Origin: a virus
Direction: 5' to 3' (one strand)
IMG/VR virus record: IMGVR_UViG_3300042502_001233
Span: 19,125 to 83,124 of that record
DNA: 64,000 nt
Positions 16,397-47,090 of the stretch are shown piece by piece. Below the pieces are notes generated by a model, which made no database searches, was not told where the DNA came from, and saw only the letters and a program-made list of their open reading frames with translations. The first letter of the stretch is position 1; each line of letters opens with the position of its first letter. A program made the position numbers and the translations under genes.

Positions 16397-16666
16397 TTAT
16401 TTACGTTTTTCAACAAGATAGTTAATGTAATCTTCGTAGCCATCATCATCATCATCATCATCATCATAATCATCATCTTCTGGTTCAAAGTCTTCATCTA
16501 ACATTTTATCCAGAACTTCAAAAGCTATTTTCATTACTTCGTTTTCTTTACCCTTTAATTGTGGGTTAGGAAGCAAAATGAACAATCCAACTATGGCTTC
16601 TACCAATCCTTTTTCATTTTCACTATATTGTCTTTTCATAGTTGTGACGGTGGGGCTCGAACCCAC
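16397..16666 (-). CDS. small acidic protein inside the tRNA cluster (likely start MKRQY at about 16639)
   Basis: C-terminal DDDYDDDDDDDDGYEDY. Confidence 0.35.
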   Translation of the reverse strand: MGSSPTVTTMKRQYSENEKGLVEAIVGLFILLPNPQLKGKENEVMKIAFEVLDKMLDEDFEPEDDDYDDDDDDDDGYEDYINYLVEKRK

Positions 16667-16725
16667 ATTGTGTTATAAACACCCAGCGTATCAGGCTGGT
16701 GACTAAACCATTCATCCACATCACA
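16642..16725 (-). tRNA. tRNA-like gene with anticodon GAU but a 16-nt hairpin variable arm (non-canonical)
   Basis: Same anticodon loop CTGATAC as the canonical Ile tRNA next to it, plus an extra hairpin GTGTT-TAT-AACAC. Confidence 0.4.
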
Positions 16726-16989: not shown

Positions 16990-16997
16990 AATTTAGG

Positions 16998-17083
16998 GTG
17001 AAAAGACGGGACTCGAACCCGCAAGGACATTTCTGTCATCTGGCTCACAACCAGACTCGCTACCGTTACGTACTACAATCACC
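16998..17083 (-). pseudogene. tRNA-His-like (GUG) with extra variable hairpin and mismatched acceptor; probable pseudo-tRNA
   Basis: Loop TTGTGAG, hairpin GACA-GAAA-TGTC, three acceptor mismatches. Confidence 0.35.
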
Positions 17084-17092
17084 ATGTATTTC

Positions 17093-19114: not shown

Positions 19115-19166
19115 TATGTGCAAAGATACAAAAAGTTAAAATACTGTGCAAGTTTTTTTTAAAAAA
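19115..19166 (-). promoter_or_regulatory. class-1 promoter (TTGCAC-N17-TTGTATCTTTG on minus strand)
   Basis: Plus-strand tgtgcaaagatacaaaaagttaaaatactgtgcaagtttttttt. Confidence 0.4.
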
Positions 19167-23901: not shown

Positions 23902-24315
23902 TTATACTACATGTAGCTTTTCAATCAAATCTTTTTTGTATTGTTCCATAACTTTGTAATTTACGTCTGGAGCATCCATTGAAGCTATGATTTCTTTCAA
24001 ACCATCAATTATAGGTTGTGTTTTTCTTTTAAGTCTAACACTCATGTAACCTTGGTCCAAAAACATAAGATGTTTAAGACCATTCTTAGCGTTAGGGCTT
24101 GACCAACCGTCAATGTTGAATTGGATGTTGATTCTGTTGGGTGTTAAATCTTCATTTAACAATATTCCCATCCAATATGTTTTACCATCTTTGGTTTTAG
24201 CGTCAAAAAGTCTAAAAGCTACTTTTTTATCGTTGATTGTTTTTACAAATACATGTTCTGATGTTTTGTTTAAATATGTGTTCAATTCTTGTTGAACTTG
24301 TTCTAATGTTTTCAT
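23902..24315 (-). CDS. hypothetical protein
   Basis: 137 aa. Confidence 0.45.
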   Translation of the reverse strand: MKTLEQVQQELNTYLNKTSEHVFVKTINDKKVAFRLFDAKTKDGKTYWMGILLNEDLTPNRINIQFNIDGWSSPNAKNGLKHLMFLDQGYMSVRLKRKTQPIIDGLKEIIASMDAPDVNYKVMEQYKKDLIEKLHVV

Positions 24316-24338
24316 TTTTTTTTCTTTTTAAGTTTATT

Positions 24339-24421
24339 ATTTTTATGTTTTGTCCAAGAACATAGACACGATGTCTATGTTGATGTCTATGTTGGACATG
24401 TTGTCCAAGATAGTGTCCAAG
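24339..24421. repeat. operator-like cluster: three TGTCCAAG direct repeats and two 7-8 bp palindromes
   Basis: ttgtccaaga...catagacacgatgtctatg...ttggacatgttgtccaaga...gtgtccaag, upstream of the gene starting at 24315. Confidence 0.4.
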
Positions 24422-24484
24422 TTATAATAAACTTAAGGCGGTGCTCTGATAATCTATTTCATAGTTTCTATTATTTAAAGTTTG

Positions 24485-24559
24485 AGGTCGGAGAGAGATT
24501 TGAACTCCCACCGTAAAGGTTCTTGCGGAACCAGTGCCTTACCATTCGACCATCCGACC
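24485..24559 (-). tRNA. tRNA-Cys(GCA), discriminator U73
   Basis: Acceptor GGTCGGA/TCCGACC, loop CCGCAAG, T-loop TTCAAAT. Confidence 0.6.
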
Positions 24560-24815
24560 CTGTTATTACGGATAAATCCTTGCGGTTATACCTTCATCCG
24601 TAGTTGTTATTTGTATCTTGCCTTTGAATTTCAACGACCCTTTGGTACTTGGGTTATCTGGCGTTTCTTTGGTTGAAAATCCTATACCAGAATCCATAAC
24701 CAAGTGGTCCACATAATAGGTTTGACCTTTGGCTTTTATTACCCACATCGGAATGCTAGGTTCTTGCAAATGCATTTTGTTGAAATGAAATATAATCTCG
24801 GTTCTTTTATCTATG

Positions 24816-25166
24816 TTAAGCATATTGAACCTCCTTTCCCATTAACGGACATGAGCTCGTTAATTTTTTGGCAGCATCGGTTGGCTCAAAAGCAACAGCC
24901 GTTATTTCGTTACCCAAGTCAGGTTCACGGAAAATTGTGTGTTTGATACCCATAAAGATAGCTTTGGTAATCAATTTGATTAGCGCTTCTTCATCAGCGA
25001 CAGTTAATAATGCTAAATAGTTTGATTTTGTTTGCCATTCGGTAGCTTCAACAGGGTGTTGATATTGGAAATCTACCAAGGCATGAGCTGATTGAACAGC
25101 TTGTTGTGAAGGTGTTAAGTCACGTCTTGTGACAACTCTTAATTTTTGATTGTTAATCTAAGTCAT
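24816..25166 (-). CDS. PTH2-family peptidyl-tRNA hydrolase with an in-frame TAG at codon 3
   Basis: Translation M-T-(TAG)-INNQKLRVVTRRDLTPSQQAVQSAHALVDF...LLTVADEEALIKL...ITAVAFEP matches PTH2 (VVRTDL...AAQ.SHA / VVLKA.DEE.L..L / TVLAIGP). The ORF track shows only the part after the TAG. Confidence 0.6.
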
Positions 25167-25226
25167 AATTTCTAATTTTTTGTTTATTATAAATATACCA
25201 CACTTTTAAAAAATGTAAAGTGTTTG

Positions 25227-25299
25227 TAGTTCTAATCGGACTCGAACCGATATCTCTCCGTTTTAGAGGCGGGTGTATTCACGTTAATACTATAGAACC
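25227..25299 (-). tRNA. candidate amber-suppressor tRNA, anticodon CUA
   Basis: The 73-nt hand fold fits canonical numbering. Acceptor is GGTTCTA/TAGAACT, D-stem GTAT/ATAC, anticodon loop CTCTAAA (34-36 = CUA), and T-arm ATCGG/TTCGAGT/CCGAT. The anticodon stem has C.A mismatches at both ends. Confidence 0.45.
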
Positions 25300-25349
25300 T
25301 TATTGTGGTACAAAGATACCACAAGTTTTTTAATTGTACAACTTTTTTT

Positions 25350-25562
25350 CTAACTTTTTTTCAAAAATTTTCCAAGTCTTAAAACTTTCTCTTTAAATTC
25401 CTCAAAAGTTCCGTTGTTTTCAATGATGATATCAGCACATGTTTTGTCAATATCAAACGATGATGGGTCTTCCAACGGAAGTCTTTCAGACGCATCAACC
25501 CAAATGATTATATCAAATAAACCTTGTCTCATACACTCGTTGATTTCAGCTCTATCTCGCAT
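25350..25562 (-). CDS. hypothetical protein
   Basis: 70 aa. Confidence 0.35.
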   Translation of the reverse strand: MRDRAEINECMRQGLFDIIIWVDASERLPLEDPSSFDIDKTCADIIIENNGTFEEFKEKVLRLGKFLKKS

Positions 25563-26178
25563 CTAAAGATAATTCAATAATTAAATCGTTAACAACTTTT
25601 TTTAACGCTTTAATGTCTTTTTTATCATTATAAATAACTTTACTAAAGTTAGTATAATCATCTAGATTAGTTTCTGAGATATGGTTTAAATCACGTAAGC
25701 TGTTCTCTCTAACACCCATTGGGTCGCCTTCCAGTCGAATTAAATAACCACCTTCTTTAAGGATATAGTCAGCTTCATTAACAAATCTAACATCTGGTAT
25801 CACAATAATTTTACCATTATTTAACTTAGTATCTAATTCTTCATTAAAGAATGATTTAACCCAAATATCAGTATCATAATTATCTCTAAATAAATCAGTA
25901 CCAACTAATTGTAATGTTTCACCAATAGTTTTATCAAATTGTTTAATAACTATATTTTTTTGGTCTTGAGTATAATTACGAATCTCATTGCAGAATGGTT
26001 TATTAGCTTCATGAGTTGTCGTCATACGTATACCACTAATTATTTCCGTAATTAACCTTAATTTATCAGCCAATGCATGTCTTTCTACTTTACCATGTAA
26101 TTGCTCAGCTAATAATTCAGCAAAGGTATCTTTACCACTACCTATTTTTCCACTAATACCTATAATTTTTTTTTTCAT
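25552..26178 (-). CDS. deoxynucleoside monophosphate kinase (T4 gp1-like)
   Basis: P-loop GISGKIGSGKDT (T4 gp1 GVKRSGKDT) and IVIPDVR...G.LIRLEG block. Confidence 0.65.
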   Translation of the reverse strand: MKKKIIGISGKIGSGKDTFAELLAEQLHGKVERHALADKLRLITEIISGIRMTTTHEANKPFCNEIRNYTQDQKNIVIKQFDKTIGETLQLVGTDLFRDNYDTDIWVKSFFNEELDTKLNNGKIIVIPDVRFVNEADYILKEGGYLIRLEGDPMGVRENSLRDLNHISETNLDDYTNFSKVIYNDKKDIKALKKVVNDLIIELSLDAR

Positions 26179-26181
26179 ATT

Positions 26182-29100
26182 TTACATTTTAAATGCTGTA
26201 ACATAAATAAATTTATCACTTTCTCTTAAAACCAAGTTATCAAAACCTATTTCTAAAAGTATTCTTTTAAATTCATCTTCATTATCTTTCCATTGATTGG
26301 CTGTTTCTGCAATCATGATTGGTTGCATAGTTCTCAATACTCTGTAAGCTTCTTTTAAATAATCTTCATAATTGCTACCCATAAGTGATAAACTAAAAAC
26401 AACAACATCTATAGATTCATCGTCTAAAGGTAATTTTGAAATATCACAAGCTATTACTGAATCATCAATGGCTACGTGGTCAAATGATAACACTTTGTTG
26501 GGTATTTCAGTTTTTAAAAGGTTTTCACCACATCCAAAATCACCAACAATATAATCTTTACGTTTAATTTGTTTAGCGATTTCTTTATATGGTATTTCTG
26601 ACCAAGTTTTTCTAGCTTCACGATACAAAGTATGATACTGATACCACTCAGTTGGGTCCTCGGTTAATCGTTTGTTAGTTGTAATAGAATTTGATACACC
26701 CCAGCGTTTATTCATTTGACTGAACTCACCATATTTAGGTAGGTTATGATTAACATAATTTGGATTCAAAGGTATTTTAAATTCTTCTCTATCAAACGTG
26801 ATAATCTCACCGTTGTTTAAACGATTAACCCATTCGGCCAACTCTTGTTGTGCTTCAAACACTAATCGTTCTCTTGAAGGTAGGAGATTTCTAGGAACAC
26901 GCCCATCAATTGCTAAATCACCCAAAGTTGCTTTAAATCTAATTATATTATGTCTACGTCTGTCCCAACTCCAAATATGTTCGCCAGCTGGTATAATAAC
27001 TTGTGGAATATAAATGTTAACTTTATCAAATTTAGAACCTTGTCTATTAACACGACCAACTAATTGGTCATATTCAGAACTGGTCCATGGAAGTACTATT
27101 GGTATCAATGTGTCACACACATATTGAATACCGTCTACACCAGTACCAACTGGTGCCGAACCAATTAAAACATCTAATTTACCCTTTTTAAAAGCTTCTA
27201 AACCACTTTTATCGTCACCAGTATAAAATCCTATACTAAAACCTAAATCTTTTACGAATTTACCTATAATATCGGTTAATTCAGTAACATAATATGTGTA
27301 TATTAAAGTCCCCCTTTTTATTTTATCTTTAACAGAATCAAGTTTAGTATTAATTAAAACTTTTTCGAACTCGCTAACAGCACCTTTAGGTATTGCTATG
27401 ATTTCATTAAACAAATGACTACCATCAGATTCTATGATTTCTTCGTTAACTGAAATACCATAATTAGGTTTATAACGAAGACCATATCTTGTTAATGCTT
27501 TATACATTTCAATACCATTTACAATGTTTTCTTTGGTTTCTAATTCGTTATGAGATTCACCTGTTAACAATTCAATTAATTTTTTAGGTTCTGTTAAATT
27601 GTTAATAATTGGTGTTGCCGACATAGCCATAACTAATAAATTTTCATTATCTTCTTTAGAGTTTATTATTAGTTTTTTAACAACATTCCTTCTAATAGAT
27701 TCTTCGTTATCACGCTGCTTAACATTTTGAACTTCATCTAAAATTATGTAATCAATCTGATTATATTTTAACAATTCAGAAACAATATATTCACCATCTT
27801 CTAACTGAAACGTTTCATAATTTAATACTAAATAATTATAAACATTTTCTTTTAATTTTATGTTATGTTTATGAACTAAATTATAATTAGAATTAACACC
27901 TTCTAATTCTTTCTTAACGTAAATCTGATTGTTAGTGAAATATTCATTTATGGACTCAACCCAGCCCTCAACAGTTGCATTATTACAAATTATTATAGTG
28001 TTTTTAGCACCAGCTAACCTACCAGCAAATATTGCAGATAAAGTTTTACCAGCACCAGTTCCAGACCAGTTACCGTATTTTTTCTCTTTAATTAAACGAT
28101 AACTAATTAGTTTTTGCATTAAGTTTGGCTGATGTTGAAAAATGTAATCACTTGGGGCGACTATTTTACAAACTTCTTCGTATTCACTAAAAAACCAGTC
28201 TTTAATTATTGTAAACCTTTCACCACCAGTTTCACCTCTTAAAGTATCAACATCTATTTGATTGTTAAGAACTTTATTCCACAATTTTTTTAATTGATTC
28301 TTTAACAAGAAATCAATATTTTCATCATCCAAAGAAGCGGTAACCATTGTATTATCATACATATGTAATTCTTTAATTGGGTCTAAAGGTGCTAATGACT
28401 CTGGTTCTTCTTCAGTAATTTCATCAACATTACCCTCAACTAAATCAACTTCTAAATTAGTTGGTTCGTTTAGAATAGAATCATTGTTGGTGTCATCGTC
28501 AGACTCATCGTTTTCTAACGTATCTAATATATCGTGAATTAATCTTTCTCTTTCCTCCGAACCAGCTTCAGAAGAAGTTAAAGAATCTAATGACCCTATT
28601 TGTTGTATTTTTTTAGCGAGATTGTTTGAATTTATTATGGTTATTAGTTCAACTGAGTCCATATAAATTAAATCTTTTTCTAAAGATTTAATAAAGTCTA
28701 ACATATAACGTTTATTCCAATAGTGACCATCACCTAAAGAACCTAACCAATCACCCATAGAAACCCACCCAGAATATTTGTATGTTTTTTCTGGCATTGC
28801 TGGGATGTTGTCTGGTTTTTTTATGTTTTTCCATTCACTATAAGATTTAAGACCTAAAGTTCTAGCATATTCTCTAGCTTCTTCAAATGGTAAAAACTCC
28901 CTAAAATTTGATAACTTACCATGACCTAACCAATCACTCCAAGATACCCAACCAGATTCTTTATAAACTTGAGATGGTGATGCTGGAATTTCATCTGGTT
29001 TAGCTGAAGATTTAGAAAACAACCTCCATTCTTTTTCACCAGTTAATTTTAAACTTCTAGCATATTCTCTAGCTTCTTCAAATGGTAGATAATCTCTTTT

Positions 29101-30078
29101 GTTACATGATATGTAATTAGTTCCTAACCAATCACCCAGCGACACCCAACCAGAATCTTTATAAACCCTATCTGGGGCACTAGGTATATTATTTGGTCTT
29201 AATTCAGATTTAATAAATTCAACCCATTCCTTTTGTCGGGTTATATTTAATTTTCTAACATATTCTCTAGCCTCTTCAAACTGTAAAAATTTTTTATCAA
29301 AATTTGATAACTTACCGTGACCTAACCAATCAACCCAAGATACCCAACCAGAATCTTTATATGTTTTATTTGGTGATTTAGGAATTTTAACATCATAATC
29401 GGTAGATTTTAAATATGTTCTAAACTCATTAGTGTTATTTAATTTTAAATTATGTATTATTTTCCTAGCTTCTTTAAAATCATAAAACTCATCAAAATCT
29501 TTTTTATAACCTAAAAAATCACCCCAAGATTTCCACCCATAATTTTTATACATTACGTGAGGTGAATAAGGTAAACCATTCACATTTGTTTTGTTTAAAT
29601 ATTCATGATATTTAGTTTGTGATGTTAAACCTAAAATTTTAACTACGTTTTTGGCCTCTTCAAAGGATAAATAATTTCTATTTTTTAAAGCAACGTAATT
29701 AGTTCCTAACCAATCACCCAGCGACACCCAACCAGAATCTTTATATATTTTATCTGGCGATGTAGGTATGTTGTGAGGCCTTAATTCAGACTTATAAAAA
29801 TTTTTCCAATCTTGTTGTGTTTTTAATCCTAAACTCTTAACAAAATTTTTAGCAATTTCAAAAGGTAGGTAACCGTCTTTTAGATTCACCGATGAACATT
29901 TAGTTTTATTTAACAAAGCATATGGTGTTATTAAATGTTCTGTATTAAACTTTTTATCAATAACCACCACTTTTTGGTTAGTATTGACATATTCGACTTT
30001 GGAATAATCATAATTATCGTTCCAATTACCACTATCTCTTAATTTTTGTAAAAACTCTTTTGTTTTATCAGTCATCAT
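26182..30078 (-). CDS. 1298-aa multidomain protein: about 8 tandem repeats of roughly 58 aa (ending YKDSGWVSxGDWLG) + SNF2/SF2 helicase + C-terminal SAM methyltransferase
   Basis: Walker A GTGAGKT, DEVQ box, SAT, helicase motif VI QLVGRVNRQGS; MTase motif I VGDFGCGEN. Confidence 0.8.
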   Translation of the reverse strand: MMTDKTKEFLQKLRDSGNWNDNYDYSKVEYVNTNQKVVVIDKKFNTEHLITPYALLNKTKCSSVNLKDGYLPFEIAKNFVKSLGLKTQQDWKNFYKSELRPHNIPTSPDKIYKDSGWVSLGDWLGTNYVALKNRNYLSFEEAKNVVKILGLTSQTKYHEYLNKTNVNGLPYSPHVMYKNYGWKSWGDFLGYKKDFDEFYDFKEARKIIHNLKLNNTNEFRTYLKSTDYDVKIPKSPNKTYKDSGWVSWVDWLGHGKLSNFDKKFLQFEEAREYVRKLNITRQKEWVEFIKSELRPNNIPSAPDRVYKDSGWVSLGDWLGTNYISCNKRDYLPFEEAREYARSLKLTGEKEWRLFSKSSAKPDEIPASPSQVYKESGWVSWSDWLGHGKLSNFREFLPFEEAREYARTLGLKSYSEWKNIKKPDNIPAMPEKTYKYSGWVSMGDWLGSLGDGHYWNKRYMLDFIKSLEKDLIYMDSVELITIINSNNLAKKIQQIGSLDSLTSSEAGSEERERLIHDILDTLENDESDDDTNNDSILNEPTNLEVDLVEGNVDEITEEEPESLAPLDPIKELHMYDNTMVTASLDDENIDFLLKNQLKKLWNKVLNNQIDVDTLRGETGGERFTIIKDWFFSEYEEVCKIVAPSDYIFQHQPNLMQKLISYRLIKEKKYGNWSGTGAGKTLSAIFAGRLAGAKNTIIICNNATVEGWVESINEYFTNNQIYVKKELEGVNSNYNLVHKHNIKLKENVYNYLVLNYETFQLEDGEYIVSELLKYNQIDYIILDEVQNVKQRDNEESIRRNVVKKLIINSKEDNENLLVMAMSATPIINNLTEPKKLIELLTGESHNELETKENIVNGIEMYKALTRYGLRYKPNYGISVNEEIIESDGSHLFNEIIAIPKGAVSEFEKVLINTKLDSVKDKIKRGTLIYTYYVTELTDIIGKFVKDLGFSIGFYTGDDKSGLEAFKKGKLDVLIGSAPVGTGVDGIQYVCDTLIPIVLPWTSSEYDQLVGRVNRQGSKFDKVNIYIPQVIIPAGEHIWSWDRRRHNIIRFKATLGDLAIDGRVPRNLLPSRERLVFEAQQELAEWVNRLNNGEIITFDREEFKIPLNPNYVNHNLPKYGEFSQMNKRWGVSNSITTNKRLTEDPTEWYQYHTLYREARKTWSEIPYKEIAKQIKRKDYIVGDFGCGENLLKTEIPNKVLSFDHVAIDDSVIACDISKLPLDDESIDVVVFSLSLMGSNYEDYLKEAYRVLRTMQPIMIAETANQWKDNEDEFKRILLEIGFDNLVLRESDKFIYVTAFKM

Positions 30079-37545: not shown

Positions 37546-37934
37546 AATATTCTTTTATAATAAATATCACAAATAATTAAAAAAACCACAAATGGCAAAG
37601 AATTCCATTCGTTCTTAAAGATTTCTTTTGCGTTTTTACCCGTTAGTCAGATGCTAACAAATCCTAACCTATCTTCGGTTATTATTCAGTCGATGTTATT
37701 GTTCTTCGCTGTTTTAATGTAAATGTCGCGCATTTCACAAACCAACAGCTTCGCATCGGTTCCACCTTCTGCGTCTCGGATTTCTAAATTAATTTTTCCC
37801 ATTGGTTTTGTTTTTTGTTGTTTGTTATTAGTTTTAATAAAAAACCCCATATTGCTATGGGGTTTAGTATTTTACAGAATAGTTTTTGTTTTTTTTTCCT
37901 TAAAAATTTCAATTGCTGAATCTATTCTTCTAGT

Positions 37935-38020
37935 TGCGGAAGTAGGACTCGAACCTACAACACAGTGTTACTGCTCCTCTAGGTTATGAGCCTAGCATGT
38001 TTCCATTTCCACCATTCCGC
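37935..38020 (-). tRNA. tRNA-like gene, anticodon CAU, with a 20-nt hairpin variable arm (non-canonical)
   Basis: Anticodon stem CTAGG/CCTAG, loop CTCATAA, extra hairpin CAGT-AAC-ACTG. Confidence 0.4.
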
Positions 38021-38028
38021 GATGTATT

Positions 38029-39724: not shown

Positions 39725-40103
39725 ATGGTGGAGTTATGGGGAATCGAACCCCAGTGTTGCATATTCTTCAAAAGCTTTCTACATGTTTATCTAGTTTCTA
39801 ATTCTAGCAAAGTTGTGCTGCGTTATTTATCCCGATGGAAGTGCAGCGACCATCGTTCCTTTTTTTACAACTAGGAAGTTGGTTCTTGGTGATTTATCAC
39901 CATCAAGTGGAATTACCACTATTAGCTATAATTAGGCTACAGCTACCTCTCCTGCGAAACTGAATGCAGCTTCGTTAAGGAAATTTTCAGAAACGATGAA
40001 ATCGTTGTCAATTCAATTTTTTAATAGACAGATTAAAGTGCTTCCAATCTAGCACTACATGCTTACGATTTACGACTATATCCAGTCAATACCGTTTAAC
40101 CCC
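39725..40103 (-). ncRNA. ssrA: tmRNA-like RNA (ssrA candidate), about 379 nt
   Basis: The 5' end GGGGTTAAACGGTATTGACTGG pairs with the 3' end (GGGGTTA / TAACTCC, one G.U). The 3' end has T-arm TGGGG-TTCGATT-CCCCA, acceptor strand and an encoded CCA. There is an internal candidate tag ORF ...GCAGGAGAGGTAGCTGTAGCCTAA (AGEVAVA*). A class-1 promoter lies about 50 nt upstream. Confidence 0.5.
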
Positions 40104-40147
40104 AATAATTTAAAGAACTTATGTATATAAATATACGTATTTTTTAT

Positions 40148-44768: not shown

Positions 44769-45033
44769 CGATATCAGTATCTATTGAAAATTGTTCTTTT
44801 ATATCTTCAACCATTTGGTTAATTTTTGCCATATCAGCCTCAGCTATGATTGATGGGTTGATACATTCTACTCTTTCTTCACCTTTGGTAGGAATAAAGA
44901 ATGCCATAGCGTTAGAATTTTTTTCAGCTAACATATGATTTACAGATTCAGCAAAAGGTTGAATAATTTCTTTGATTTTCATCATTTCAGCATCCAAGTA
45001 AAATACAAGGATAAGTGGATATTGGTTTTCCAT
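44695..45033 (-). CDS. hypothetical protein with C-terminal Cys motif (CECGGNCKC)
   Basis: 112 aa. Confidence 0.35.
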   Translation of the reverse strand: MENQYPLILVFYLDAEMMKIKEIIQPFAESVNHMLAEKNSNAMAFFIPTKGEERVECINPSIIAEADMAKINQMVEDIKEQFSIDTDIDVEDEETENKPCECGGNCKCDKNE

Positions 45034-45036
45034 AGT

Positions 45037-45297
45037 TTATTGTTTATAATTTGTTATTTCTTCAACATAATTTGATATATCGTCACTGTTTGGGATAGTT
45101 TTGAAATGTGTTACTAAATATTCTGTAACTACCAAGGATTTCTCGGTTTGACCTAAAACTTCTCTACATGCGATGTTTTTACCATCAATGTTTATATATA
45201 TTAAGTATTCGCTAATATAGTTTTTTCCTTTTTTTCTACTGTAAAATCTATCAATTTCTTTTACTATTATTTTTGTCATAAAATTTATTTTAAACAA
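45037..45297 (-). CDS. hypothetical protein
   Basis: 86 aa. Confidence 0.35.
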   Translation of the reverse strand: MFKINFMTKIIVKEIDRFYSRKKGKNYISEYLIYINIDGKNIACREVLGQTEKSLVVTEYLVTHFKTIPNSDDISNYVEEITNYKQ

Positions 45298-45574
45298 GTA
45301 TAACGAAAAACAATAAATATGTAAATGATATAAATAAAAAAAGCCCCATTGCTGGAGCTTTCTTTTTATTCGATTTGTCTACAAGATGCGGGGGCATTTA
45401 CTTCTAAACCCAGTTACGAAGTTTCTCTCGATTCAAAAAATTTTAGAGGTTACAAGAGAGGACCTACGTTAAATAGTGTATCTGAATATTTGTAGTTTTT
45501 TTGTTTGCTGCATACAACTTTTAAGCGACAAATCTAGTTAAGACACGGAGCAGTTTCCCACCCCGCACTTAGTT
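45298..45574 (-). other. 277-nt noncoding region with long-range stem (UGCGGGG ... CCCCGCA about 140 nt apart); candidate structured RNA
   Basis: atgcgggggcat at about 45415 pairs with ccccgcac at about 45562; no ORF. Confidence 0.3.
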
Positions 45575-47011
45575 TTAAACAGTTACGCAAGCGTAACGTT
45601 CTGAGCCGATAACAGACATCATCATTGAGTATGGTGTCATCTCTTTACCCGCTAGCAAGCTAGTCAATAAAGATGGTGAGAAACCACTCACTAAAGCAGT
45701 ACCGTTTTTATCAAACTGAACTGGTTTGTTGTTATCACCTCTTGACTGAATGTTCCAGTATACAACTTTAGGCATAGCATAACCAGCTTGAGAGTATTTG
45801 GCTTCAATCATTTGTTGTGCAGTTGGGTTCCAACTTCCACCACCAGCGTAGTTGAATTCCATATCCGAAAGGATAAGAATCATTGTTGGCATTTCTTCTT
45901 GAGAAACTTTAGAAGCTCTCGCTTTGTCAAGTATCAAGTTGAACACCGCTTCGATGTTGGTAGACATTGCCCACTCAGCACGTCTCAATTGGTTGTATCT
46001 CTCACTAAGAGAACCTTTCAAGATTTGAAGCGAAGGACGACTTGAGAAAGTCACAAACGCATCTTGGAAAGGACCAACGTTTCTTTCTGAAATGTATAAC
46101 CCCAAAGAGATTGCTACATCCATACAAGTTACACTAGCGCTACCACCAGCTGAACAAGACATTGAACCTGACACGTCAACAACTGGCAAGAATTTCTCGT
46201 TGTTGTTTTCCATGTAGTTAGGTAGTGCACCCCATTGTGCGTTAGCACCTTTAGTGTTACCTTGGTTCAAGCTTTTGATAATGTCGTATGGGTATACGGC
46301 ACCAGCGTTTATTTTTGTTTCACCTTTTTCAACAGAGTTAAGGTATTCTTGGAAACGAACCAAGTCATTTTTAGAGAACGCTTTCATGTAGTCACTCATT
46401 GCTTTTGAAGGCAATTTAGAATACTCAATTTTAGAGAATTCTTTAGCACACATCAATTGCTCAACGGTGTTAGAGTTTTCTACTAACATTTTACGGTAGT
46501 CTTTTGGTGACATACCCATGTGTTTTCTCAAAGCTGTCGCCCATCTTTTTTTCTCACGATTACCTACGTTTGGACGTGGCATCCATTTAGCGCAAAGACC
46601 ATTTTTATTAGCCAACGCACTAGCGATTAACTCCAAAGCATCTTTTTCCAAAGGTGTACCTACCAATACAAGTAAGTCATCCCATCTACCGAACTCGGCA
46701 ATCAAGTGTAAATTTTTACGCAAAGCGTCTGTACGGTTAGCCGCAAGATACTCTATGATATCTCTGAAGATTTTTCTTTCTCCAGCTCCACCACGAACGT
46801 CACGTGCCCAGAACAACAAACGCATTGCTGTTAATGAGTTCTCACCAAATGCTTTCGTGAATACATTGATAAGACGTTGTTTATCTTGCCCTCTCATAGC
46901 ACCAATCTGGAAGAATAAATCCACACATAGGTTTAATGATGAAGAGTTAGTAGACATACCGTTTTCAGTCAATGAATCTTTAGTTTGCATAGCATTTAAT
47001 AATGTACTCAT
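45575..47011 (-). CDS. vWA-domain protein with TROVE/Ro60-like or DUF2828-like N-terminal region
   Basis: MIDAS-like VVDVSGSMSC; N-terminal LLFWARDVRGGAGERKIFRD; the likely start is MSTLLNAMQ at 47011, not 47050. Confidence 0.45.
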   Translation of the reverse strand: MSTLLNAMQTKDSLTENGMSTNSSSLNLCVDLFFQIGAMRGQDKQRLINVFTKAFGENSLTAMRLLFWARDVRGGAGERKIFRDIIEYLAANRTDALRKNLHLIAEFGRWDDLLVLVGTPLEKDALELIASALANKNGLCAKWMPRPNVGNREKKRWATALRKHMGMSPKDYRKMLVENSNTVEQLMCAKEFSKIEYSKLPSKAMSDYMKAFSKNDLVRFQEYLNSVEKGETKINAGAVYPYDIIKSLNQGNTKGANAQWGALPNYMENNNEKFLPVVDVSGSMSCSAGGSASVTCMDVAISLGLYISERNVGPFQDAFVTFSSRPSLQILKGSLSERYNQLRRAEWAMSTNIEAVFNLILDKARASKVSQEEMPTMILILSDMEFNYAGGGSWNPTAQQMIEAKYSQAGYAMPKVVYWNIQSRGDNNKPVQFDKNGTALVSGFSPSLLTSLLAGKEMTPYSMMMSVIGSERYACVTV

Positions 47012-47042
47012 AATAATAAAATTTTTGATTGTTAATTTTTGA

Positions 47043-47090
47043 TAATGCAAAGATACTACTTTTTATATATGCTTGTCAAGTTTTTTTTCG
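47043..47090 (-). promoter_or_regulatory. class-1 promoter (TTGACA-N17-TAGTATCTTTG)
   Basis: atgcaaagatactactttttatatatgcttgtcaagtttttttt. Confidence 0.5.

Follow-up and report, generated by a model that had tools for sequence, protein, structure and literature searches.

In a 64-kb window of viral DNA (positions 19,125 to 83,124 of IMG/VR record IMGVR_UViG_3300042502_001233; coordinates below refer to this whole analyzed stretch unless another genome or locus is named), a gene for a PTH2-like peptidyl-tRNA hydrolase carries an in-frame TAG (amber) stop at codon 3 and is preceded by a transfer RNA (tRNA) gene with anticodon CUA. Around 700 nucleotides (nt) downstream of this TAG, a second early TAG interrupts a short open reading frame (ORF), here called the mini-ORF. 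The best reading of this locus, which sequence comparisons make likely in our judgment, is that both TAGs serve as gates that are licensed by the phage's own suppressor tRNA. The PTH2 TAG recurs in more than 70 independent sequences, in all of which the gene is intact, and the type of stop at the gate follows the suppressor tRNA's anticodon across phages. Re-initiation, ordinary recoding of TAG, a minigene like bar of phage lambda, and a pseudogene or assembly error all fit the data less well than suppressor gates.

The PTH2 gene, its early TAG and the adjacent tRNA

The PTH2 gene lies on the minus strand (24816..25166). Its gate (25158..25166), as read from the sequence and its relatives, consists of ATG (25166-25164), ACT and TAG (25160-25158), and is followed by ATT (25157-25155) and AAC AAT CAA AAA TTA AGA GTT GTC..., after which the frame stays open until the TAA at 24818-24816. 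An earlier reading of this stretch from its letters alone (the sequence-only reading) had described this frame as continuing into a full-length PTH2, and indeed the product comprises M-T-stop and 113 amino acids (aa). The mechanical ORF list opens the frame only at a TTG (25079; 87 aa). The 113-aa product passed the cut-off of Pfam PF01981 (PTH2) marginally (24.9 bits against 23, E = 2.5e-5, residues 5-95 of 113), and a profile of 17 orthologs matched solved archaeal and human Pth2 structures (2zv3, 1rzw, 24bt, 1wn2, and 1q7s of human Bit1; E 3e-7 to 2e-4), with positions 5-105 of 110 of the profile aligned, i.e. over the full length. As the structure alignment starts at residue 2 of those chains, which corresponds to the first strand KLRVV, this strand lies upstream of the TTG, and a product started there would be without the first strand and the next helix of the fold. 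The earlier statement that the N-terminal block is located between TAG and TTG therefore holds. The archaeal Pth2 equivalogs of NCBIfam, NF003314 and TIGR00283, were not reached (23.7 bits where the cut-off is 126, and 22.6 where it is 82, respectively), and the protein represents a divergent subfamily and not a Pth2 equivalog. Invariant among the orthologs are K5, R11, D13, H25, E78, D80 and T86; E78 aligns with the Asp of the archaeal 'RD' motif and the loop that follows it is 4 residues shorter.

From the TAG to the TTG at 25079 there are 26 codons, for which the ratio pN/pS was 0.28; the remainder of the gene gave 0.22 and the two other frames 1.4-1.8, which argues that the stretch directly after the TAG is translated and under protein-level selection. 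A stop in frame at codon 3 is normally taken as the sign of a pseudogene or of an error in assembly, and the annotators of Tenacibaculum phage pT24, of Agrobacterium phage Atu_ph07 and of its sister phage Phosso have shifted the start of the gene downstream. This explanation, to which we assign next to no probability, is refuted already by the recurrence of the TAG in independent sequences, the intactness of the gene in each of them and the purifying selection after the TAG. The sequence-only reading had itself named a solitary TAG that vanished upon resequencing as evidence against its proposal; what was found is a second in-frame TAG (24456-24454) and dozens of independent assemblies that carry the first.

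The tRNA gene (25227..25299, minus strand) is located 60 nt 5' of PTH2. Both tRNA searches recovered the 73-nt gene that had been proposed: ARAGORN reported the same anticodon (CTA) at 25226-25299 and Rfam RF00005 scored 50.6 bits at 25227-25299 (gathering score 29). In canonical numbering the anticodon loop reads C32-U33-C34-U35-A36-A37-A38, and the weak anticodon stem noted before, with mismatches C27.A43 and C31.A39, was seen again. In an alignment of 16 orthologous tRNAs the loop CUCUAAA was invariant, 17 of the 19 stem pairs showed compensatory changes and 95% of the cells were paired, a score that was reached in none of 500 shuffles. This covariation shows a real tRNA family, whose members we predict to be amber suppressors. 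The odd sequence type of the window recurs in the relatives L006/L007, L009 and L014; at least four genomes have it, and L014 shows a compensatory change in the T-stem. The closest similarity of the tRNA(CUA) is ambiguous (Lys-, Trp- or Arg-like) and varies by phage.

The gate proved to be conserved in every relative in which it could be read. In a first round, 18 close IMG/VR relatives were collected; the TAG was present in all 17 with upstream DNA, and in these 17 loci a tRNA(CUA) was located 60-270 nt 5' of PTH2. A wider IMG/VR search, using a profile and peptide patterns that excluded the gate, yielded 67 loci at 33-87% identity, 64 of them with upstream DNA. All 64 open with ATG, 1-6 sense codons and TAG, with around 19 distinct strings of pre-stop codons, and in every one the stretch from the TAG to the first strand is free of ATG, GTG and TTG. 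The base that follows the TAG is a purine in 64 out of 64 loci; a purine after the stop is the classical context favoring amber suppression. A tRNA(CUA) was found within 10 kb of PTH2 in 54 of the 64 loci, in 53 of them on the same strand, and no other type of suppressor was found near PTH2 in this set; several of the 10 loci without tRNA(CUA) end early at contig ends. The gate also occurs in five further huge-phage genomes (six records: LR756500, LR756501/LR756503, LR745206, LR756502 and LR756504) and in pT24, again with no canonical start ahead of the first strand, and all three huge-phage orthologs of the public phage collection start with ATG AAG TAG ATT, ATG TCG TAG ATT and ATG AAC AAT TAG ATT.

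A second gene of LR745206 (L004, 3998-4588) opens with ATG AAT ACT TAG ATT and runs for 192 codons, from which it follows that gated starts may extend beyond PTH2 in the largest phages. Within the window, ATGNNNTAGATT occurs in 3 copies where 1.27 are expected, which by itself is not beyond chance; it is the conservation in all relatives examined that makes it more than chance. As a general motif, TAGATTAA was discarded (3 copies against 7.35 expected, hence not enriched). Further candidate gates at the TAGs 5719, 45381, 20104, 52428, 43510 and 17655, and at ATGTTGTAGATT (60811), were dropped on the ground of an intergenic hairpin, a position out of frame or a normal start nearby.

The sequence-only reading had left a choice between amber read-through and a start at the ATT that follows the TAG. 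In the latter case ATG ACT TAG would constitute a two-codon upstream ORF, after which ribosomes would re-initiate at the adjacent ATT and PTH2 would be made without suppression. ATT is an accepted rare start codon in bacteria (as in infC), and the window, most close relatives and Atu_ph07 (TGA ATT AAT) indeed have ATT or ATA after the stop. Among the 64 loci, however, the codon at this position is ATT, ATA, GTA, GTT, ACG, AGC, ACT, ACA or AAC, and many loci have one of those from GTA onwards, none of which is a start codon, so that initiation at ATT does not provide a general explanation. Moreover, a generic upstream ORF should in most cases terminate with TAA, which is the commonest stop of these genomes, whereas the gate is TAG in 64 out of 64 loci and TGA only where the suppressor has the anticodon UCA, and the same ATG-x-TAG heads a 9-codon leader (see below) where restarting would be purposeless. 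We consider re-initiation improbable, and the comparisons favor the read-through half of the original choice.

Alternatively, ATG ACT TAG might act like bar, with ribosomes dropping dipeptidyl-tRNA at the stop and the minigene thereby sensing or titrating the hydrolase, while PTH2 itself is translated otherwise. The lambda bar minigenes, which consist of a two-codon ORF and a stop, cause peptidyl-tRNA drop-off with effects that depend on Pth, and a two-codon ORF in front of a hydrolase gene fits this picture. Nevertheless, PTH2 has no alternative start codon, the stop is preceded by anything from 1 to 6 codons, and the strict link between stop type and suppressor anticodon would be left unexplained. 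We consider this scenario very unlikely, slightly more so than re-initiation.

Gate codon, suppressor anticodon and the genetic code

The gene that follows PTH2, ORF85 (24566..24823, minus strand), encodes a conserved all-beta protein of 85 aa; its ATG shares bases with the stop of PTH2 (ATGCTTAA), and GGAAAGGAGG stands in front of this ATG. A search for ORF85 homologs led to cultured jumbo phages, in which the relation between gate and suppressor can be compared. The PTH2 of Atu_ph07 (gp256) was annotated from an internal Met, by which the first strand is dropped. In frame upstream we found ATG ATT GGC GAA CAC TTT TGA, followed by ATT AAT, and thus a gate of the TGA type; the published genome has tRNA(UCA) as its single suppressor. 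In Phosso, the gate reads ATG AAG TAT TAG GTT. Given this TAG a tRNA(CUA) was predicted beforehand, and it was then found in the annotation as tRNA(cta) at 446,731-446,806. The contrast between Phosso (TAG and CUA) and Atu_ph07 (TGA and UCA) implies that the gate codon tracks the suppressor anticodon. In pT24, the gene starts with ATG AAA TAG ATA and is annotated from a too-late start, and a tRNA-Sup(CUA) is located 2.6 kb upstream. Finally, Rhizobium phage RHph_I1_18 has an unannotated ORF85 homolog with a TAG at codon 6, which ends 12 nt before a tRNA(CUA). Directly after the tRNA(CUA) of Phosso there is a 1.3-kb unannotated stretch (L043, 26807-28102); a gated gene was sought in it and no open frame was present in any of the six frames.

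The sequence-only reading had placed the PTH2 TAG against a background of genome-wide recoding. If TAG were an ordinary sense codon (genetic code 15), as in the Lak and crAss-like phages, the TAG in PTH2 would not be special. Recoded phages of Bacteroidota that carry a tRNA(CUA) are well documented, and the PTH2 of LR756501 contains a second, internal in-frame TAG. The conservation of the gate is difficult to reconcile with this, as a free synonym would alternate with sense codons, whereas the TAG is invariant at 33-87% identity while its neighbors change. We analyzed the use of TAG in the window, which covers 64 kb of around 362 kb and contains genes of early type. Apart from PTH2 and the mini-ORF, no TAG-interrupted gene was found in these 64 kb, and neither around 150 kb of first-round loci nor samples of 50 kb each from LR745206 and LR756500 contained another. 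With TAG read as sense, the ORF coverage of the window rose from 0.79 to 0.82, which is no more than was obtained with TGA as sense (also 0.82). TAA terminates around 85% of the long ORFs of the window and TAG only 5-7%, i.e. 3-4 ORFs, including 25552-26178 and a kinase remnant 5' of the tRNA(CUA), and TAG still terminates several conserved genes of the same loci. A TGA gate is likewise found in Atu_ph07, which nevertheless ends 267 genes in TGA. The window thus displays neither the many interrupted genes nor the absence of TAG terminators that characterize a genome-wide code 15, and the recoded background falls away for this region. Recoding of late genes is possible; as a full explanation of the gate we consider ordinary recoding unlikely, though the least so of the alternatives.

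Two further signals were considered and set aside. The depletion of TAG is uninformative, as the share of long ORFs that end in TAG is 7% here and 11% in phi4:1, a control phage without suppressor; back-up stops follow the TAG in 2 of 3 TAG-ended genes, but also occur in 33% of the TAA-ended genes. Outside the window, a 'Gp23' match at 4 kb distance was rejected as a capsid gene, since it belongs to a family of small proteins of 131-166 aa; this family (L023, 15065-15460; 43 homologs) matches only a fragment of the T4 Gp23 capsid domain. With the terminase of Cellulophaga phage phi4:1 as query only 140-kb phages were matched, and the DNA past the other edge of the window holds only more early genes.

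The mini-ORF and the surrounding region

The mini-ORF (24462..24433, minus strand) reads ATG AAA TAG ATT ATC AGA GCA CCG CCT TAA, or M-K-amber-I-I-R-A-P-P-stop, as established from the sequence and its relatives, and its amber codon is the second in-frame TAG mentioned above. It starts 22 nt after a tRNA-Cys(GCA) gene (24484..24559, minus strand; ARAGORN and Rfam), which is a conserved member of the cluster. The mini-ORF is present in 14 first-round loci and in 44 of the 66 loci of the wider set, with the pattern M-x-amber-I-x-[R/K]-x-P-[P/T/N]-stop. Mini-ORFs ending in Pro-Pro-stop were found 29 times with TAG at the gate, against 0 times with each of four control codons and 0-1 times on the opposite strand. 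Comparable mini-ORFs occur in LR756501, LR745206 and LR756502, and adjoining the tRNA(CUA) of RHph_I1_18. A strict DNA pattern for the mini-ORF recovered only three contigs from IMG/VR, all of which were already in the set.

One base before the mini-ORF stop codon a 13-bp stem opens. Its 5' strand, TTAAGTTTATTAT (24424..24436, minus strand), pairs with ATAATAAACTTAA (24328..24340, minus strand), i.e. 24436-24424 with 24340-24328, and the latter strand ends 12 nt before the ATG of the next gene. The minimum-energy fold of the region has -32.6 kcal/mol (z = -5.3). The stem occurs in the same register in 11-12 of 14 loci, and across loci a stem of 10-15 bp extends from the base ahead of the stop codon to a point 5-13 nt short of the next ATG. 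In a hand-anchored alignment 94% of the cells pair and 6 of the 13 pairs show compensatory changes, statistics which are optimistic since the 3' strands were picked by complementarity and the stem is AU-rich. In LR745206 the CCT CCT TAA of a similar mini-ORF constitutes the 5' arm of a hairpin of -30.5 kcal/mol directly 5' of PTH2.

The gene that follows in the window encodes a 137-aa protein (23902..24315, minus strand, from the ORF list), orthologs of which (starting with MKTQEQ...) are found downstream of the mini-ORF in most loci. As its A-rich leader is masked by the stem, this gene is the presumed target of the mini-ORF. Its product had no match in Pfam, PHROG or NCBIfam, and a single-sequence AF2 model (pLDDT 47) was unusable and set aside. 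Within the long-range stem there are two perfect palindromes, TTGGACA-N3-TGTCCAA (24408-24392) and CATAGACA-N3-TGTCTATG (24379-24361), with extra half-sites (24361-24420, minus strand); 4 of the 8 TTGGACA copies of the window fall within 24361-24420. Palindromes are present at this place in related loci as well, though with other sequences. They may represent hairpins in the RNA or operators for a protein.

The window as a whole has a G+C content of 31%, with nearly all genes on the minus strand, and contains 16 tRNA genes and one transfer-messenger RNA (tmRNA) gene (ARAGORN, Rfam). Among its large proteins are an RNA ligase, a DNA ligase, a CCA-adding enzyme, a Ro-like RNA-binding protein, SbcC and a helicase-methyltransferase, and it is a region of RNA repair, translation and nucleotide metabolism, without structural character. 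The PTH2 module sits among the tmRNA, tRNA-repair and CCA-adding genes. Given the affinity of the DNA ligase to that of Cellulophaga phages, the nearest cultured relatives on this basis (53% identity), and promoters that look like those of Bacteroidota, the source is probably a phage of around 360 kb that infects Flavobacteriia.

The consensus of the Bacteroidota -7 promoter element is TAnnTTTG. A putative promoter that fits it, TATCTTTG (25311..25318, minus strand), was read 12 nt 5' of the tRNA(CUA) gene. Around 25 nt 5' of the PTH2 start codon there is a promoter-like element, TATATTTAT (25189..25197, minus strand), which occurs in 12 copies in the window against 4.3 expected, a number that was reached in 0 of 100 shuffles. 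The sites (including 10275, 15662, 20457, 25189, 40127 and 63933, minus strand) are mostly located directly 5' of minus-strand genes, and the copy upstream of PTH2 is kept in related loci. We consider the element a candidate phage promoter element resembling the Bacteroidota -7 box. Another copy (40127-40135) precedes the tmRNA gene (39726-40103, minus strand; Rfam RF00023, 63.1 bits; not in the ARAGORN listing of the window) in the same way as it precedes PTH2. tmRNA genes are also present near the PTH2 cluster in the related loci L020, L022 and L033.

Some other features of the region may be recorded. The 70-aa ORF at 25350-25562 (minus strand) is the C-terminal remnant of a kinase-like gene of 189 aa, which is whole in L006, L008, L013 and L014; in the window a dNMP-kinase gene (25552-26178) takes the place of its N-terminal half. 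The kinase-like gene or its remnant terminates in TAG directly 5' of the tRNA(CUA) promoter in the window and in L006, L008, L009, L013 and L014. Three tRNA genes on the minus strand, tRNA-Ile (16641-16725), tRNA-His (16996-17084) and tRNA-Met (37933-38021), have 85-89 nt, which is unusually long for their isotypes. Each is accompanied by a normal-length copy for the same amino acid, and they may hold an extra arm or an intron. Directly 3' of the Ro-like gene (45575-47050, phrog_850) there are around 540 nt without ORF and with a locally higher G+C content (45033-45575, minus strand). Y RNAs often accompany Ro genes; in this stretch nothing reached an Rfam gathering score. The 1298-aa protein encoded at 26182-30078 (minus strand) starts with around six repeats in its N-terminal part (...YKDSGWVSLGDWLG..., Pfam INT_rpt); an SNF2-type helicase comes next, and a methyltransferase forms the C-terminal part. 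Past the low end of the window, an RlaP-like nucleotidyltransferase gene (L023, 16364-17752) is apparently split by around 550 bp.

Possible working of the gates and comparison with known systems

On basis of the above, we infer the following course of events for suppressor-licensed gates. At the first gate, ribosomes would initiate at the ATG (25166) and add Thr, after which UAG enters the A site. Where release factor 1 wins, the dipeptide would be released and no hydrolase made; where the charged tRNA(CUA) wins, an amino acid would be inserted and the full 116-codon protein, including the first strand and helix, would result. At the second gate, the Pro-Pro-stop end would be reached only by ribosomes that have passed the mini-ORF amber codon. 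Since Pro-Pro-stop is a slow-terminating context the ribosome would probably pause there, and the paused ribosome could melt the 13-bp stem and free the A-rich leader of the 137-aa gene. Both gates would then report suppression and tie the expression of PTH2, its partner ORF85 and the 137-aa protein to suppressor activity. The 'translational switch' that the sequence-only reading had suggested thus receives comparative support for its read-through part, while the switch as such continues to be conjectural. As to the reason for such a coupling, one may guess that suppression raises read-through, non-stop stalling and peptidyl-tRNA drop-off, so that the rescue capacity should follow the suppressor.

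Several observations weigh against licensing by the suppressor tRNA. The functional reason just given for coupling PTH2 to suppression is speculation. The window tRNA keeps only three Watson-Crick pairs in its anticodon stem and its minimum-energy fold pairs the anticodon (z = -0.8), and therefore this variant may decode poorly. As TAG terminates conserved genes in the same loci, suppression has to be incomplete, or else the phage tolerates its cost. The 6-kb loci of LR745206, LR756502 and LR756504 yielded no tRNA(CUA), and neither did the 50 kb that surround the PTH2 of LR745206. The covariation of the mini-ORF stem has to be read with the reservation made above. Furthermore, phage XacN1 has both a PTH2 and a tRNA(CUA), yet its PTH2 (ORF295) is ungated, as is that of Prevotella phage Lak-B7, from which we conclude that the gate belongs to particular lineages. 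Around 600 nt 5' of the latter gene there is a tRNA with the anticodon UUA (L039, 2341-2413), which would read TAA; Lak phages have been reported to recode TAG.

A broader generalization, which we put forward tentatively, as plausible but with clearly less confidence than the reading of the locus itself, is that the suppressor tRNAs of many large phages, including those with the standard code, are the input of a dedicated regulatory circuit and not a tool for a new code. A cognate start-proximal stop would gate PTH2 (and in some phages ORF85), a stop-gated leader of the arrest type would gate a further gene, and a small rescue regulon would thus scale with suppressor activity. Suppressor tRNA genes are common in jumbo phages and their targets have so far mostly been undefined. 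The locus points to a testable class of targets, namely stops within the first codons of a rescue-enzyme gene and of a small leader peptide. If true, the 'orphan' suppressor tRNAs of jumbo phages would for the first time have defined targets, and the mini-ORF would represent a new class of leader peptides that sense stop-codon decoding. It would also mean that annotation pipelines truncate or miss gated genes, as illustrated by the too-late PTH2 starts in pT24, Phosso and Atu_ph07 and the absence of the ORF85 homolog from RHph_I1_18, that a small regulatory circuit could have been the beginning of phage recoding or could exist alongside it, and that nature offers a compact 'suppression sensor' usable in genetic-code-expansion work. 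Three cultured pairs are available for tests: pT24 with Tenacibaculum, Phosso with Sinorhizobium meliloti and Atu_ph07 with Agrobacterium tumefaciens.

Phage suppressor tRNAs, the recoding of TAG and the PTH2 genes of jumbo phages are known already. In the literature that we searched there was no description of a stop codon at the start of PTH2 or of an amber-gated leader of the arrest type, and no report of covariation between stop type and suppressor anticodon. Stop-codon recoding with phage suppressor tRNAs and 'code-change modules' has been described (Borges et al., bioRxiv 10.1101/2021.08.26.457843; Peters et al., PMC9523058). The recoded phages share with the present locus a phage tRNA(CUA), in-frame TAGs that need it and the idea that genes with the stop would be silent until the suppressor is active. 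What differs is that a single invariant stop is found here at codons 3-8 of one gene family and in one leader peptide, in surroundings that use the standard code and in which TAG still terminates, and that the clearly unrecoded Atu_ph07 is gated too. The Borges preprint does not mention PTH2 and ascribes in-frame stops in N-terminal extensions of integrases to wrong start prediction. PTH2 genes of jumbo phages were reported before (Iyer et al., PMC7824862; XacN1 ORF295; mycobacteriophage cluster C1). They belong to the same family and are likewise accompanied by tRNAs, tmRNA, CCA-adding enzyme and RNA ligases, but those of XacN1 and Lak-B7 start, unlike the gated genes, at a plain ATG. The XacN1 authors looked only for read-through at gene ends and found none.

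Three other systems show partial likeness. The bar minigenes resemble the PTH2 start in their two-codon ORF with a stop and in their functional link to Pth; bar is free-standing and toxic, whereas the frame described here runs on into the hydrolase and its stop type tracks the suppressor tRNA. SecM, ErmCL, TnaC and the RAPP-type ApdA/ApdP are arrest leader peptides that unmask a downstream start. Like these, the mini-ORFs are short and end in R-A-P-P, R-G-P-T or K-P-P before the stop, and the stem that we computed runs from the predicted stall point and covers the leader of the next gene. They are distinguished by their 7-15 codons with an amber at position 3-4, and by an input that would be suppressor activity and not a drug, an amino acid or secretion. 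The gene for release factor 2, prfB, contains an early in-frame UGA that is passed by a +1 frameshift and by which it senses its own product. Both prfB and the gated PTH2 have an early in-frame stop in a gene for termination or rescue, which in PTH2 too would act as a sensor in the A site, but where prfB uses a frameshift to sense its own product, it would be a dedicated tRNA that reads the stop in PTH2 and whose presence is sensed there.

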